Positions 41,912 to 61,566 of a DNA stretch of 64,000 nucleotides are shown here, in pieces. The notes beneath the pieces were generated by a model. It had not been told where the DNA came from. It made no database searches and saw nothing but the letters and a program-made list of their open reading frames with translations. This DNA is from a virus (taxonomy: Duplodnaviria > Caudoviricetes), in IMG/VR virus record IMGVR_UViG_3300031994_000046, positions 34,658 to 98,657 of that record, one strand, 5' to 3'. How positions within the stretch are numbered: the first letter of the stretch is position 1; each line of letters opens with the position of its first letter. The translations under genes were made by a program, and so were the position numbers.

Positions 41912-43678
41912 ATGATATTTGGTAACTTAGAAGATGTATTGGAAAATGAACAGACTATAAATGAGGCTATTCAACAGAATTTCCAACAATCATACGGCAA
42001 TATGCAAAAGCCAACGAAATGGTCAAAGATACTTGTAAAGCTTTCACATTACGGAATGAATTATTCTGATGATGTGTATAAGAACATGGTTGCATATCCT
42101 GCAGATAAAGCATTACAGCCTAAAGATGATGTAGCTTTACAACAGGTATTAATGGGATCATCAGTAAATAACTGGAAGGTAAAACCTGAAGAAGACAAAT
42201 CATTCTCAGAAAAGACATTAGAGCAGAAACGTGATGTACTTCGTAAGATGGCTATGCAGCCTGAACTTGAAGACATTTTAGATATCATGGCTAATGAATC
42301 TATTGTTTATGATGATGATGAATCTTATATTTGTACACCATTCTTAGACACCGGTTTGATTCAAGACTTAAATGAAAAGTCTGCTGAAGAAATTCGTAAT
42401 GCAATGGATATAGCATTCTATAAAATATATCTTTTATTGGAATGGAAAAAATTTGCATGGGATGAATATAAACGTTATCTTATAGATGGTGTATTAGCAT
42501 ATGAAATAGTATATGATAATCTTGAGAATCCTAAAGCTATAACGGGTATTGTAGATATTGATCCTAATACATTAACAAAGAAGATTAAAGATGGTACTAC
42601 ATATTGGGTTCAGTTTGAAGGCAAGATTGGATTTGAACGTATATTACTAGATTCTCAAGTCATATATATCAAATATGAAGATTCTGGTGTATCAACACGT
42701 CAATCATATCTTGAACGTCTGATTCGTCCATTTAATATTTATCGTATTGTTGAACAGGCACAAGTTATTTGGACAGTTACTCAATCATCATTTAAGACAT
42801 TATTTACTATTCCAGTAGGATCACAAAATAGAACAAAAGGTGCTCAAACATTAGCATCTTCAATGAATAGATATAAAGAAGACATATCATTCAATACAGA
42901 AACTGGTGAACTTAAAGTAAATGGTAAAATGAATATGCCATTTAATAAAGAATATTGGTTCCCAGAAAATGAAAATGGTAGACCACAGCTTGAAACACTT
43001 GTTGATAATGGACCAATGCTTAATGATTCAGACCAGATAAGATATTTTGAATCTAAACTTTGGAAGATGTCAAAGATTCCTGCAAACCGTTTTGATAAGG
43101 AAGCTCAATCAACATGGTTTGGTAATGATCCTACTCAAGCATTACGTGATGAAATTGATTTTTCAAGATTCGTAACACGTTTAAGAAATACATTTGCTGA
43201 AATATTACTTAAGCCACTTCGTATTCAATTATCATTATCAGTTCCAGACATTAAGAACGATAAACGTATATTAGATTCAGTTACTCTTCGTTGGAATTCA
43301 TATAACTTATTCGAAGAAATGATGAATATTGAAATCATGACTAAAAGAGTAGAATTTATTGGAACTATGAAAGACAGCTTAGCAACAACTGATGCTGAAG
43401 GTAATGAAGAATCATTCTTCTCACTTAAGTTCTTAATTATGAAATATCTTAAGATGTCTGACGCTGACCTTGAATTGAATGAAAAGTATAAGATGGAAGA
43501 AAAACTTGCTAAAGGTAATGGTAATACCGAAGAGGAAGAAGAAACTGGAGAAACAGAAGAAACAGGAACAGAACCTGAAGGAGGAGAAGGTGGTGGAGCT
43601 GAAGAAGAAGGTTCAGACATAGATTCTGAAATGCTCGGTGACGTACAACCAGAATCTCCAGAAACAACACAAGCATAA
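41912..43678 (+). CDS. portal protein (T4 gp20-like)
   Basis: YLIDG, SYLERL, YWFP, D.IRYF..KL..SKIP, RDEIDFSRFV.RLR motifs. Confidence 0.93.
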   Translation: MIFGNLEDVLENEQTINEAIQQNFQQSYGNMQKPTKWSKILVKLSHYGMNYSDDVYKNMVAYPADKALQPKDDVALQQVLMGSSVNNWKVKPEEDKSFSEKTLEQKRDVLRKMAMQPELEDILDIMANESIVYDDDESYICTPFLDTGLIQDLNEKSAEEIRNAMDIAFYKIYLLLEWKKFAWDEYKRYLIDGVLAYEIVYDNLENPKAITGIVDIDPNTLTKKIKDGTTYWVQFEGKIGFERILLDSQVIYIKYEDSGVSTRQSYLERLIRPFNIYRIVEQAQVIWTVTQSSFKTLFTIPVGSQNRTKGAQTLASSMNRYKEDISFNTETGELKVNGKMNMPFNKEYWFPENENGRPQLETLVDNGPMLNDSDQIRYFESKLWKMSKIPANRFDKEAQSTWFGNDPTQALRDEIDFSRFVTRLRNTFAEILLKPLRIQLSLSVPDIKNDKRILDSVTLRWNSYNLFEEMMNIEIMTKRVEFIGTMKDSLATTDAEGNEESFFSLKFLIMKYLKMSDADLELNEKYKMEEKLAKGNGNTEEEEETGETEETGTEPEGGEGGGAEEEGSDIDSEMLGDVQPESPETTQA

Positions 43679-46688: not shown

Positions 46689-48602
46689 ATGGCAAACAAA
46701 GAATTTGAATACGAATATAATCCTATAAAGGAACAAATAAATGGAAAAGAGGCTGAAAAAGTAATATGGTCTACTGCAGTTATAAATAAAGCATTAGAAG
46801 GTATACAATCTGGTCAGCCATTAAAAGCTAGTCCATTCTTAAATAAAAATACTAAACTATTAAAACCTGAATTAGTTCGTAAATATACTCAAGAAGAAAT
46901 TGAAGATTATAAACGTTGTGCATTGGATCCTTTATATTTCGCAGAGAAATGTTTCTTGATGACACCAACAGGTTTACAAGCTTGTAAACTTCGTGATTAT
47001 CAAAAAGCATATATAAGACATTTACAGAATAATAGATTTAGTATCTTCCTTTCGTGTCGTCAGTCAGGTAAGTCAACAACAACTGCTATTTATTGTCTTT
47101 GGGTTATATTATTCAATTCAGATAAATCAGGTCTTATATTATCAAAATCTGGTCCTGCAGGATTAGACCTTATTAAAAAGATTAAGGATATGTATCTTTA
47201 TCTTCCTTATCACTTAAAGATAGGTACAATGAAATGGAATCAATCTGAAATTTCATTTGATAATAACTCTTCAATATCAACTGAATCATTCTCACCAACA
47301 GCAGGTCTTGGTAAAACAATTAACTTCCTTATTCTTGATGAGTTTGCTTGGTGTCCACCTAATGATGTTGAATTATTCTATAATAACATCATACCTACTG
47401 TTACTACAATTACAGATTCAAACGTATGTATAATGTCTACACAAAATGGATTTAACTTATTCTATAAACTTTGGAAAGGTGCTATTGAAAAGACTAATAT
47501 ATATGCACCATTTAAAGTAGACTGGTATCAGGTTCCTCAATATAACCCAGAAACAGGTCAATGGGAAAAACGTACTGATAAATGGAAAGAAGATATGATA
47601 GGTGTATTAGGATCTGTTGAAGCTTTCTATTATCAATATGGTACACAATTCTCAGCATCAGATAAATGTTTGGTTTCTCGTGAACGTATTGCTACATTAA
47701 GAGATGACGCAATATTGTATGAAGAACGTGATTTGGAATTAACTGAACTTTTTGGATTAGCATTGCAATATCCAAGATATTTAGTATGGGACCCAAATTT
47801 CAATTTAGAAGATATTAAGACATGTTTCTTCTTAATATTGATAGATCTTGCTGAAGGATTTGGTGGAGACTATACAGTATTCAATATATTCAAGATAATT
47901 GGTAAAGATCAATTTCAACATGTAGGATTATGGAGATCCAATGAAGTTGATCTTGAACATGCGGCATTAGAATTTTGGCTATTAGCAGGTCAATTATTCA
48001 ATGGAGAAAACTGTATGTGGTCATTAGAATGGAATACTTATGGAGCTTTATTCTATCGTCTATTGATGGATTATAATGAAGATGATTATGAAATTTCTAC
48101 AAAATGGAGATTCAATATTGTTACAGACGGTATTGAGTTAAGTAATTTTGTCCAATATAAGAAATCTGCAATGGATGAACAGATTATAGGACGTACAGGT
48201 TCAACATCAAGATTCATACCAGGAATAAAGTTTACCTCAGGAAATAAAGGTACAGCATGCTCATTACTAAAGACATTATTTGAAAAAGGCCAAGTTGTAA
48301 CAAGAGATATAGTTACATTAGGAGAATTAGAAAACTTCGAAGATAAGAATGGTAATGGTACATATAAAGCTTCTTATGGACATGATGATATTATTATGAC
48401 ATTTGTTCAGATTCCTATGGTGATGCAGACTGGAAAATATTCATCATTCTTGGAAGATATTGAAGAAGCTCGTATATCTGGAATTATAAACAATAAATGG
48501 AATACCAATCAACAGCAAAGCATTGAAGATACTCCATTTGGTATGTTTACACAATTAGGCGAAGGTTTCAATCAATTTGGTATTGAAATGCCTATGTCTT
48601 AA
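46689..48602 (+). CDS. terL: terminase large subunit (T4 gp17-like)
   Basis: LRDYQ, CRQSGKS Walker A, LILDEFA Walker B, DLAEG.GGDY, HDD nuclease motif. Confidence 0.95.
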   Translation: MANKEFEYEYNPIKEQINGKEAEKVIWSTAVINKALEGIQSGQPLKASPFLNKNTKLLKPELVRKYTQEEIEDYKRCALDPLYFAEKCFLMTPTGLQACKLRDYQKAYIRHLQNNRFSIFLSCRQSGKSTTTAIYCLWVILFNSDKSGLILSKSGPAGLDLIKKIKDMYLYLPYHLKIGTMKWNQSEISFDNNSSISTESFSPTAGLGKTINFLILDEFAWCPPNDVELFYNNIIPTVTTITDSNVCIMSTQNGFNLFYKLWKGAIEKTNIYAPFKVDWYQVPQYNPETGQWEKRTDKWKEDMIGVLGSVEAFYYQYGTQFSASDKCLVSRERIATLRDDAILYEERDLELTELFGLALQYPRYLVWDPNFNLEDIKTCFFLILIDLAEGFGGDYTVFNIFKIIGKDQFQHVGLWRSNEVDLEHAALEFWLLAGQLFNGENCMWSLEWNTYGALFYRLLMDYNEDDYEISTKWRFNIVTDGIELSNFVQYKKSAMDEQIIGRTGSTSRFIPGIKFTSGNKGTACSLLKTLFEKGQVVTRDIVTLGELENFEDKNGNGTYKASYGHDDIIMTFVQIPMVMQTGKYSSFLEDIEEARISGIINNKWNTNQQQSIEDTPFGMFTQLGEGFNQFGIEMPMS

Positions 48603-56488: not shown

Positions 56489-56602
56489 AATTTTAATTTA
56501 ATTTAATTTGTTAGTTATATAAAATGGTTTATCCTCTAACCAAAAAGGAGTTGTATTGTGGAACAACTTTAAAACATCCATGTTCTTTTTACAGAAACAT
56601 CG

Positions 56603-56673
56603 TGCCCCATGTAGGACTCAAACCCACCTCAGCTGGTTTAGAAGCAGCGGCACAATCTCTATACCAATGGGAC
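56603..56673 (-). tRNA. amber suppressor tRNA (anticodon CUA)
   Basis: 7-bp acceptor, D and T arms fold; anticodon arm GCTGC-TTCTAAA-CCAGC; the Arg-TCT register cannot pair. Confidence 0.8.
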
Positions 56674-58297: not shown

Positions 58298-58354
58298 AAT
58301 TATATATAATTATAATCAAATATAGTTAATTATAATTAAATATTTCAAAAAAAG

Positions 58355-58485
58355 TTGCCACTGTGGGACTCGAACCCACGACCACGAGCTTAAAAGGCTG
58401 AAGTAACTCTCATCTTCAACAATATTTCTATGTAACTCTCGACAAAAATATAATTACGTGCTCTGTCCAACTGAGCTAAATGGCA
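58355..58485 (-). tRNA. tRNA-Lys(UUU) with 57 nt insert in anticodon stem
   Basis: Removing 58400-58456 restores CGAGC-CTTTTAA-GCTCG. Confidence 0.8.
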
Positions 58486-58844: not shown

Positions 58845-58974
58845 CGGCGACGGTTGGAGTCGAACCAACTTTCCTTAATTTGACTGATTAATGCTTTGAA
58901 GTAACTCTAATCTACAACATCATTTCTGAGTAACAGCGAATAAAGTTGTTTATCTACCGTTTAGCTACGTCGCC
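58845..58974 (-). tRNA. tRNA-Asp(GUC)-like with about 56 nt insert in D-loop
   Basis: TTAAT-CAGTCAA-ATTAA (A33), G73; insert about 58898-58953. Confidence 0.7.
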
Positions 58975-60040: not shown

Positions 60041-60116
60041 TGCTCTCACAGGGATTCGAACCCTGACCTCACAGATTAAGAGTCTGGTACGCTGAACCGT
60101 TAAACGCCATGAGAGC
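60041..60116 (-). tRNA. tRNA-Lys(CUU)
   Basis: CAGA-CTCTTAA-TCTG. Confidence 0.9.
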
Positions 60117-60738
60117 AATTAATAAATTCTTTTATATTATTAATTACTTTATATTTATCATCATTATTCATTTTTTTATATTCAGACCAACGTATTCTAA
60201 TTCCTTCCCAACCTTTTTGCTTTAAATATTCATTACGTTCTTTATCATGTTGAATCATATAATCTGAATAATGTTGTTCACCATCAATTTCTACATATTT
60301 CATTAAATCTTCATTATAAAAATCTAATTCATATCTATCAATCTGTTTATGATATTTTAATGGAACATTTTCTTTAATGAATAATTCTTCAAAATATTTT
60401 TCTGGATAACTTTGTTTTGATGAATGATTTAATTTAAAAGGAATTTTATCTGGATTATTATCTAAATATTTTTTTCTTGATTTAGAAATTTTTTGTTTTG
60501 ATTCTTCTGAATGATGTTTACCAATCCAAGATATTTTTTTCTTAGTTTCATCAGACATAATTATTTCTTTTCCTTCCTCTTTTGCTTTTATATATTGATT
60601 TGTTGGTTTTCTAGTTTTATTATAATCTCCCATAAATATTGATGTAATACGATTTTTATTATATTTACATCTTATTTCATGTTGAACCAAAGAATTCTTA
60701 TTTTTACATTCTTTATTACAATATTTACAATTAAACAT
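60100..60738 (-). CDS. free-standing homing-type endonuclease (Zn finger + NUMOD3 + DUF559/Vsr-like)
   Basis: CKYC..H..C; GKHHSEESKQKIS; LDF..VEIDGEQH..D..R..L...GW; true start ATG 60738. Confidence 0.85.
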   Translation of the reverse strand: MFNCKYCNKECKNKNSLVQHEIRCKYNKNRITSIFMGDYNKTRKPTNQYIKAKEEGKEIIMSDETKKKISWIGKHHSEESKQKISKSRKKYLDNNPDKIPFKLNHSSKQSYPEKYFEELFIKENVPLKYHKQIDRYELDFYNEDLMKYVEIDGEQHYSDYMIQHDKERNEYLKQKGWEGIRIRWSEYKKMNNDDKYKVINNIKEFINCSHGV

Positions 60739-60756
60739 ATATTTAAAATATTTTTG

Positions 60757-60827
60757 TGACCTCACTGGGAATCGGACCCAGGTCACATGATTAAAAGTCA
60801 TGGGCTTTACCACTAAGCTATGGGGTC
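60757..60827 (-). tRNA. tRNA-Lys(UUU)
   Basis: CATGA-CTTTTAA-TCATG. Confidence 0.92.
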
Positions 60828-60833
60828 ATTATT

Positions 60834-60968
60834 GTGCCTTCGAAGGAATCGAACCTCCATACTTACTCCTATTAATTATTACTTATCCGCGGTTGTAATA
60901 ATCTTCGGTTAGTAAGACCGCCTTCACAGGGCGGTACGGTTACCAATATACCGTAATAAACCAGCATT
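60834..60968 (-). ncRNA. His(GUG)-anticodon tRNA-like RNA with about 55 nt variable arm
   Basis: CCGCC-CTGTGAA-GGCGG; 6 bp D stem; canonical T arm; C73; weak acceptor. Confidence 0.6.
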
Positions 60969-60983
60969 GTTAAGAATTGTTTG

Positions 60984-61079
60984 TGCCGCCGGTAGGATTC
61001 GAACCTACTTACTGCTAGAGGCCAATACCGAAATTTGATAGAGCAGAATGGTTTTACGGACCATCTCGGTTACGTCGGC
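60984..61079 (-). ncRNA. D-armless Tyr(GUA)-anticodon tRNA-like RNA
   Basis: GCCGACG/CGGCGGC acceptor; ATGGT-CCGTAAA-ACCAT; large variable arm; canonical T arm. Confidence 0.65.
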
Positions 61080-61129
61080 TTGCTATAATTACTATCATCT
61101 TCGTTATAGCAATAATAATAATCCTTCAT
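61070..61129 (-). CDS. Tyr-rich leader mini-ORF
   Basis: MKDYYYCYNEDDSNYSKPT*; stop lies within the Tyr-like RNA. Confidence 0.55.
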   Translation of the reverse strand: MKDYYYCYNEDDSNYSKPT

Positions 61130-61159
61130 AACTCTTAACTTTAAATTTATTAATAATTG

Positions 61160-61229
61160 CGTGATAAACCGGAATTGAACCCTGTTTCTGCCCCACTACA
61201 GAGCTGTCCTAACCTATAGACGATTATCC
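61160..61229 (-). pseudogene. degenerate tRNA-like sequence
   Basis: D and T arm motifs present; anticodon arm and acceptor imperfect. Confidence 0.45.
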
Positions 61230-61323
61230 TTATCGCTATATCTGCCAATATAACGTTTATATTATTTATTGAATTTTCTTACAACTGGCAGGAAATAAGA
61301 TTTTTACAACAAATAACATAAAG

Positions 61324-61413
61324 TGGGTCGGGAGGGACTCGAACCCCCAATGTTTACCCGGAGGGACTAGATTTACAGTCTAGCACAACACCACCAATCG
61401 TTGCTGCCGGCCC
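61324..61413 (-). tRNA. tRNA-Tyr(GUA)
   Basis: CTAGA-CTGTAAA-TCTAG, long variable arm, extended D stem. Confidence 0.88.
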
Positions 61414-61566
61414 AAAAGGTAGAAACTCCCAGTGTTTCTACTAACTGCTAAACGTATTTATACTTAGGATTAGTTTAGATTCAACCAAATCTTTACCATG
61501 ATGGTAAAAATCCCATCTATAAAGGGGATGGTTATATTCCCAATCGCTTTTGAGTTTTACCCTTTT
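61414..61566 (-). ncRNA. uncharacterised structured RNA
   Basis: long imperfect terminal stem AAAAGGTAGAAACTC/GAGTTTTACCCTTTT. Confidence 0.45.

Follow-up and report, generated by a model that had tools for sequence, protein, structure and literature searches.

The 64,000-nucleotide stretch of phage DNA analysed here (the window) harbors, within its tRNA array, a 96-nt tRNA-Tyr-like RNA that is probably the product of a genuine RNA gene under selection, a second tRNA-Tyr(GUA) with a differently wired core, for which the part of a processed, chargeable second tRNA-Tyr is the most likely one. The shape of tRNA is among the most conserved features in biology, and a naturally selected rebuilding of the D arm from the variable arm would represent another route to the L shape. 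The element would also serve as a test of the core rewiring that is tolerated by RNase P, the CCA-adding enzyme, tyrosyl-tRNA synthetase (TyrRS), EF-Tu and the ribosome.

The tRNA array and detection of the element

The window phage DNA has a G+C content of 27% and carries a T4-type portal gene (41912-43678) and a large terminase gene (46689-48602); the public runs containing the stretch originate from sheep and cattle gut samples. Twenty-six tRNA genes called by ARAGORN, along with several tRNA-like oddities, are located between ~56.6 kb and the end of the window, all on the minus strand. A full CCA is encoded by none of the 26, and almost every one is followed by a C and then by A/T-rich DNA. 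Tyrosine accounts for 6% of the residues in the window phage, and 667 of its 740 Tyr codons (90%) are TAT. The same array contains a cloverleaf tRNA-Tyr(GUA), and such a gene was found close to the element in most related loci; the element is hence a second Tyr gene. The mini-ORF, the leader hairpin and the tRNA-like RNA were all found on the minus strand where the initial annotation had placed them. Position p of the element corresponds to window coordinate 61080 - p, and the features of the RNA and of its cloverleaf neighbor are as follows:

61323..61413, minus: cloverleaf tRNA-Tyr(GUA) of the same array, called by ARAGORN
60984..61079, minus: whole 96-nt tRNA-Tyr-like RNA, delimited by the Rfam tRNA model, model R1 and sharp conservation limits
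61073..61079, minus: acceptor stem 5′ strand, doubling as the final two sense codons of the mini-ORF; both-side changes at 6 of 7 pairs
61066..61070, minus: helix B 5′ strand, the 5-nt D-arm remnant; pairs with 61027-61031
61047..61065, minus: anticodon arm with a 6-bp stem and a 7-nt loop; GUA at 61057-61055, position 33 at 61058; 4 of 6 pairs co-vary
61042..61046, minus: helix D 5′ strand, base of the variable arm, directly after the anticodon stem; pairs with 61012-61016
61032..61041, minus: A-rich 10-nt linker from helix D to the relocated helix B strand; five-base core kept
61027..61031, minus: helix B 3′ strand, within the long variable-arm loop; pairs with 61066-61070
61017..61026, minus: D-loop-like segment directly after the helix B 3′ strand; an A, then GG at 61023-61022
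61012..61016, minus: helix D 3′ strand, three nt ahead of the T stem; pairs with 61042-61046
60992..61008, minus: standard T arm, 5-bp stem and 7-nt loop; loop invariant, one stem pair changes on both sides
60984..60991, minus: acceptor 3′ strand (60985-60991) and discriminator A73 (60984); C74 is next, at 60983

Searching a 501-nt stretch with the Rfam tRNA model (RF00005) gave the element 28.7 bits against a gathering score of 29, and the same model returned no match at the element when the whole window was searched. It was not called by ARAGORN in the standard, intron, pseudogene or mitochondrial mode, which shows that genes of this kind in phage arrays can escape standard tRNA finders. A weak 19-bit match to Rfam tRNA-Sec was observed over the element; neither ARAGORN nor Rfam called a tmRNA here, and the ORF lies upstream of, not inside, the tRNA-like part. 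The single-sequence fold of the element was not better than that of shuffled sequence (z = -0.6), so that one sequence alone cannot tell a gene from a relic. The silence of ARAGORN, an Rfam score just under the threshold and a fold no better than shuffles would all suit a decaying tRNA-Tyr pseudogene, i.e., a drifting duplicate that had lost part of its D arm, a reading that is taken up below with the evidence from the relatives.

In the Rfam alignment, 5 nt of the element stand in place of 15 D-arm model positions, and a 5-bp anticodon stem, a 7-nt loop with GUA and C33, a 36-nt variable region and a standard T arm were observed. The D hairpin normally present between position 9 and the anticodon stem is missing, and its partner strand and a GG sit after the anticodon arm. 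The absence of a D arm from its usual place, which had been claimed from the window alone, was borne out by both the Rfam alignment and the comparison within the family. The acceptor stem in the window consists of six Watson-Crick pairs and one A-G mismatch, with the discriminator unpaired.

Conservation and co-variation among related phages

Seventeen contigs of related gut phages carry the element, in 18 copies that represent 14 distinct sequences. To find the relatives, contigs from IMG/VR and JGI metagenomes were scanned with DNA patterns, and records encoding a related portal protein were then searched with covariance models. An exact 23-nt core pattern gave no match in viral contigs, and the first relatives came from a pattern for the T arm and acceptor. 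One candidate, L003, was rejected as it proved to be an unrelated tRNA-Phe having the same T arm and acceptor. Model R1 scored the window element at 123.7 bits and the 17 other copies at 63-125 bits. Ten copies were near-identical to that of the window, with differences almost all in the upper anticodon stem and at position 33; within this close group, the ~80 nt outside the anticodon loop and upper stem are almost frozen and only the anticodon region is fast-changing. Eight copies were more diverged (63-101 bits with model R1). A search of 15 related records with model R2 found exactly one copy per positive record, with a clear gap between family members (at least 85 bits) and ordinary tRNAs (at most 33 bits), and detected no RNA of the same architecture with another anticodon in these records. 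The element was missing from the related records G003 (70% complete), G004 (98%) and G005 (100%). Two diverged copies are present on one metagenome contig, L009 (2106-2201 and 3989-4085, minus strand), one without a leader and one with.

The limits of conservation coincide with position 1 and a point just after C74, and the flanks are unrelated sequence in several contigs. The L002 phage, whose portal protein is 73% identical to that of the window, has an element differing at 4 of 96 positions, yet the most diverged element belongs to the L032 phage, whose portal is 89% identical. The slow change of the element relative to the portal, together with the sharp limits, argues for strong constraint on the element. 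Judged from these sequence comparisons, the element seems to move between arrays. An origin from the neighboring cloverleaf tRNA-Tyr was considered and rejected, as alignment of the two gave no special similarity.

Features common to all copies are G1-C72, A73, C74, U8, GUA with three A's behind it, the T loop, and the A and GG that come next to the relocated strand on its 3′ side. The GUA anticodon, read as such in the initial annotation, is therefore invariant across the family. The non-canonical C33 reported along with it is present in the window and is not a trait of the family, position 33 being C in 7 and U in 7 of the 14 distinct sequences. C74 follows A73 in 18 of 18 copies, a convention shared by the other array tRNAs; a relative of the pseudoknotted tRNA in L011 encodes CCA.

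Pair counts were made on alignment A3 with the pseudoknot written in. Standard pairs occupied 94.4% of the cells over all 28 pairs, compared with 80.1% in shuffles and 22-55% with slid partners. Both-side changes were found at 16 of the 28 pairs, the 14 distinct sequences being related and a few lineages giving most of these changes, and none of 500 shuffles reached any of the measures. All five helices co-vary in the aligned sequences.

Helix B joins the D-arm remnant to the loop of the variable arm. Its cells were paired in 97.1% of cases (75.5% in shuffles; 0 of 500 shuffles as good), with 14 cells changed on both sides and both-side changes at three of the five pairs. The pair types observed were C-G and G-C at one pair, G-C, A-U, G-U and U-A at the next, and A-U, C-G and U-G at the third. 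As helix B is not part of model R1, which produced the alignment, the alignment was not fitted to it; RNAalifold also predicted helix B de novo on a separate MAFFT alignment. The pairing of ACCGA in the remnant with TCGGT in the variable loop had been put forward for the window, with co-variation in related phages as its check, and is upheld by these counts. Helix D, at the base of the variable arm, was paired in 95.7% of cells, with both-side changes at two pairs and 2 of 500 shuffles as good; the evidence for it is weaker than for helix B because the alignment was fitted to it. Helix D crosses helix B, which would constitute an H-type pseudoknot if both form together. Both stems co-vary, in agreement with the putative pseudoknotted core put forward in the initial annotation. 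The core of the linker (C, three A's and U) was kept in 14 of 14 distinct sequences, as were the A and GG of the D-loop-like segment, with the GG two or three bases after the A.

These observations bear directly on the possibility of a decaying pseudogene. Both-side changes in all five helices, invariant loops, sharp conservation limits and an identity far above that of the surrounding genome stand against drift, and the pseudogene reading is hardly credible.

In the architecture proposed for the selected RNA gene, the D loop and the 3′ strand of the D stem would be gone from their normal place, and the 5 nt after U8-A9 would pair with a 5-nt strand in the enlarged loop of a class II variable arm. 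The 5′ half of the D arm would have moved into this loop, with the remnant acting as the 3′ strand. Since the remnant runs straight into the anticodon stem, helix B would stack there to give a continuous arm of ~11 bp, and the stacked helices would imitate the D-stem/anticodon-stem arm of the L shape. In ordinary tRNAs, A14 and G18-G19 dock on the T loop. The A and GG that follow the relocated strand could be the counterparts of these residues and could dock on the unchanged T loop. In a putative tertiary role, the A-rich linker (61041-61032) may occupy a groove in the manner of loops in other pseudoknots.

The leader upstream of the element

The element of the window is preceded by a leader with a candidate mini-ORF, a hairpin and one half of a long-range stem, the other half of which lies in the trailer:

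61130..61139, minus: long-range stem, leader half, directly upstream of the ATG; 10 bp with 60969-60978
61070..61129, minus: candidate mini-ORF of 19 codons plus TAA, ending inside the tRNA-like RNA; ATG 61129-61127, TAA 61072-61070
61080..61112, minus: leader hairpin with 9-bp arms (61112-61104 and 61088-61080) and a 15-nt loop, its last base immediately 5′ of tRNA position 1
60969..60978, minus: long-range stem, trailer half, 6-15 nt after A73; 10 bp with 61130-61139

The leader occurs once per genome and only before the element, and was not found elsewhere in the genomes. The TAA of the mini-ORF provides U8, A9 and position 10 of the tRNA-like RNA. In the window version, 5 of the 19 codons specify Tyr, all of them TAT, against a background of 6% (P = 0.004). 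The ORF was in frame in 11 of 18 copies, in versions of 19, 20 and 21 codons, and missing in 7. The 19-codon version contains a run of three Tyr, the 20-codon version has Ala-Val/Leu-Phe-Tyr instead, and the 21-codon version has a different middle; Tyr was not enriched in the latter two (3 of 20 codons, P = 0.11, and 2 of 21 codons, P = 0.36). The enrichment in the window can thus be ascribed to a trinucleotide run missing from the other lineages, and of the Tyr-rich mini-ORF reported initially, the enrichment holds for the window and the three-Tyr run is confined to its lineage. Two Tyr codons are common to all versions. The frame of the ORF survives two 3-nt length changes and the full replacement of the hairpin arms, and of the 11-13 substitutions between versions, 0-1 fall at codon position 2 and 7 at position 3 (P about 0.01-0.04). 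The +1 frame is likewise open in two versions. This weak coding signature makes it possible that the ORF is translated.

The hairpin is kept in the 21-codon version with different arm sequences, the core motif being in the opposite arm. The hairpin reaches right up to the tRNA, and no U run lies between the two. The leader-trailer duplex was matched by 0-3% of shuffled trailers in the window, L001, L012 and L030, and by 8% in L004, which showed the one both-side change of the long-range stem, from G-C to A-U. L010, with a different trailer, has a different leader-trailer duplex that is also significant. The leader-trailer stem may be a processing stem for a double-strand-specific RNase. In L002, the leader is replaced by a 215-codon GIY-YIG-like endonuclease ORF, the stop codon of which is U8-A9-A10 of the tRNA.

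It had been proposed at the outset that translation of the Tyr codons controls the folding or processing of the RNA, with ribosomes stalling on the Tyr-rich leader ORF and releasing the RNA when Tyr-tRNA is short. The overlap of the ORF with the 5′ strand of the tRNA, the maintenance of its frame through length changes, the avoidance of codon position 2 by substitutions and the two Tyr codons kept in all versions are in line with this proposal. The phage genes also lack Shine-Dalgarno motifs, and their AT-rich start regions resemble the one before the ATG of the mini-ORF. However, the three-Tyr run belongs to one lineage, Tyr enrichment is lacking in the other versions, two of the versions also have an open +1 frame, and 7 of 18 copies have no leader but an intact RNA. 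A promoter and terminator scan of 60700-61500 gave no terminator-like site, nothing above the shuffled expectation and nothing in the leader, and no alternative attenuator fold was found at the locus. In addition, the 10-bp leader-trailer stem over the bases before the ATG would hinder initiation, and cleavage by RNase P would part the ORF from its stop codon. Neither the conserved cluster of regulatory codons nor the terminator/antiterminator of leader-peptide attenuators of the his, phe or trp type was seen. Control by Tyr codons is hence not supported: a Tyr-sensing attenuator is unlikely, and release of the RNA by stalled ribosomes is very improbable. The leader, comprising the ORF, the hairpin and the leader-trailer stem, is an optional, lineage-variable precursor module.

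Possible function and relation to known tRNAs

The element is similar to bacterial class II tRNA-Tyr in its 7-bp acceptor stem, G1-C72, A73 and GUA followed by three A's, in the variable-arm stem placed right after the anticodon stem and ending three nt before a standard T arm, and in sitting within a tRNA array whose members share its C74 convention. It deviates from class II tRNA-Tyr in lacking the D hairpin that normally separates position 9 from the anticodon stem, in a variable-arm loop of 25 nt that supplies the partner strand and the D-loop-like A and GG, in C33 in half of its sequences, and in falling below the ARAGORN and Rfam thresholds.

The identity set of bacterial tRNA-Tyr consists of G1-C72, A73, the anticodon and a long variable arm. 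This set (G1-C72, A73, G34-U35-A36 and the long variable arm) was invariant in 14 of 14 distinct sequences. No phage TyrRS (PF00579) was found in 10 related records, so that charging would fall to the host enzyme. The RNA would be cut from the array transcript like its neighbors and then given CCA, charged by the host TyrRS, and used to decode the very frequent TAT codons of the phage. An artificial tRNA without a D arm was accepted by E. coli HisRS, EF-Tu and the ribosome with no adaptation (PMC11551756). The RNA may double as a copy that is poorly recognised by host nucleases directed at tRNA-Tyr. More tentatively, and at somewhat less than even odds, the element could be the first natural non-organellar tRNA to work in translation without a cloverleaf, its D stem and loop being permuted by way of a pseudoknot. 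An unmodified bacterial TyrRS would charge it, EF-Tu and the ribosome would accept it, and its rewired core might have been selected for evading host nucleases that destroy tRNA-Tyr.

Some features speak against a working tRNA. The replacement of the near-universal U33 by C33 could impair decoding; the A-G mismatch at acceptor pair 5, present in 9 of 14 distinct sequences, and the absence of the element from G003, G004 and G005 also count against it. A cloverleaf tRNA-Tyr adjoins the element in most genomes, and hence the element is not needed as the sole Tyr tRNA. The main rival explanation is that the RNA is a tRNA-Tyr mimic acting outside translation, as a decoy or sponge for a host factor that recognises tRNA-Tyr, such as a defence nuclease, a modification enzyme or TyrRS. 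The presence of the cloverleaf gene would agree with such a role, and the fast change restricted to the anticodon loop and upper stem, with repeated substitution of U33 by C33, would be compatible with an arms race against a nuclease. tRNA-Tyr is a known target of defence systems: Retron-Eco7 PtuAB degrades tRNA-Tyr, and the tRNA-Tyr of phage T5 itself lets T5 escape (PMC11555353). Evasion of such nucleases has been proposed for phage tRNAs with altered anticodon loops (PMC10264068). A decoy, however, would have no need for a constant G1-C72, A73, C74 and T loop and three A's after the anticodon, nor for a 7-bp acceptor stem co-varying at six pairs, and no candidate partner protein was identified. 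A role solely as a decoy is considered unlikely, and the second tRNA-Tyr is the preferred reading. The backup or decoy tRNA-Tyr suggested in the initial annotation may still be a fair guess at function. The element may point to a structural escape route from tRNA-cutting defence systems and could become a scaffold for orthogonal tRNAs. The element is covered by Logan contigs from four metatranscriptome runs, which belong to three studies of sheep and cattle gut, and some of the contigs extend across its 5′ end into the leader; contigs of this kind cannot show transcription, ends or strand, DNA carry-over is possible, and they were not counted as evidence.

The 3′-end tRNA-like structures of plant RNA viruses such as brome mosaic virus are pseudoknotted and tyrosine-accepting; they form their acceptor arm, located at the 3′ end of the genomic RNA, through the pseudoknot and have no true anticodon arm. 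The element is similar in being a viral, pseudoknotted tRNA mimic with tyrosine identity, and differs in its plain acceptor helix, its pseudoknot in the core and its location in the tRNA array of a DNA phage.

With the D-armless mitochondrial tRNAs, such as mammalian mt-tRNA-Ser(AGY) and those of nematodes, the element shares a short connector between acceptor and anticodon (PMC7609411; PMC11551756). The mitochondrial tRNAs are shortened, have lost the contact between D loop and T loop, adopt a Y or boomerang shape and are encoded by an organelle. In contrast, the element belongs to a bacterial virus, exceeds the usual tRNA length at 96 nt, has a standard T loop and the conserved GG, and has its helix rebuilt from the variable arm. 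The artificial 'mini HisT' of E. coli is also D-armless and usable by a bacterial synthetase, EF-Tu and the ribosome; unlike the element, it is a product of engineering that contains no helix in place of the missing one, and degradation by PNPase limits it in vivo (PMC11551756). Allo-tRNAs and tRNA-Sec are likewise unusual tRNAs with long variable arms from metagenomes and phages (PMC5389517). These keep the D arm and have acceptor/T arms of 8/4 and 9/3, whereas the element has the standard 7/5 and no D hairpin.

A blastn search of an 801-nt region against GenBank phage records (50,697) returned only ordinary tRNA-Tyr or tRNA-Lys stretches. A search with the 157-nt element and leader gave no match in the 50,697 GenBank phage records, and tblastn with the neighboring 610-aa protein gave none in the GenBank phage records. 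No account of a tRNA of this shape in bacteria or their viruses turned up in the literature search. Phages and pseudoknots both go unmentioned in a review of non-canonical tRNAs (PMC7609411), and according to a 2024 paper, all known bacterial tRNAs are cloverleaves and arm length is the sole structural variation in cytosolic tRNAs (PMC11551756).

Several other features of the window and its relatives were observed. None of the 32 long ORFs of the window has a Shine-Dalgarno-like motif within 25 nt upstream of its start; their start regions are A/T-rich, many with a T4-late-promoter-like motif. The absence of these motifs is consistent with a host in which initiation does not depend on Shine-Dalgarno pairing. 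At 56602-56673 (minus strand), a tRNA whose anticodon is CUA (amber suppressor) was called in the pseudogene and mitochondrial modes of ARAGORN and scored 33.7 bits with the Rfam tRNA model. Among the relatives, a tRNA with a UUA anticodon is present in L060, and tRNAs with a four-base UUUG anticodon in L005, L009 and L064. The tRNAs with CUA, UUA and four-base anticodons hint at recoding of stop codons or frame in this phage group. An ORF within the array at 60100-60813 (minus strand), with DUF559 (Vsr-like endonuclease), NUMOD3 and zinc-finger matches, probably encodes a homing endonuclease.

The next element downstream (60836-60960, minus strand) is another non-standard tRNA-like RNA, for which Rfam and ARAGORN gave no standard tRNA call. 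Its D stem is 6 bp long and closes a GG loop, its G+C-rich anticodon arm reads GUG (His), ~55-60 nt are inserted ahead of the T arm, which is standard, and the acceptor is poorly paired; the start of this RNA is kept as the 'trailer' in those relatives that have the downstream flank of the window. Two over-long tRNA matches were found, both on the minus strand: a 130-nt Rfam tRNA match of 45.4 bits at 58845-58974 and an ARAGORN intron-mode tRNA-Leu with a 40-nt insert at 58354-58485. The array seems to be rich in insertion-bearing tRNAs.
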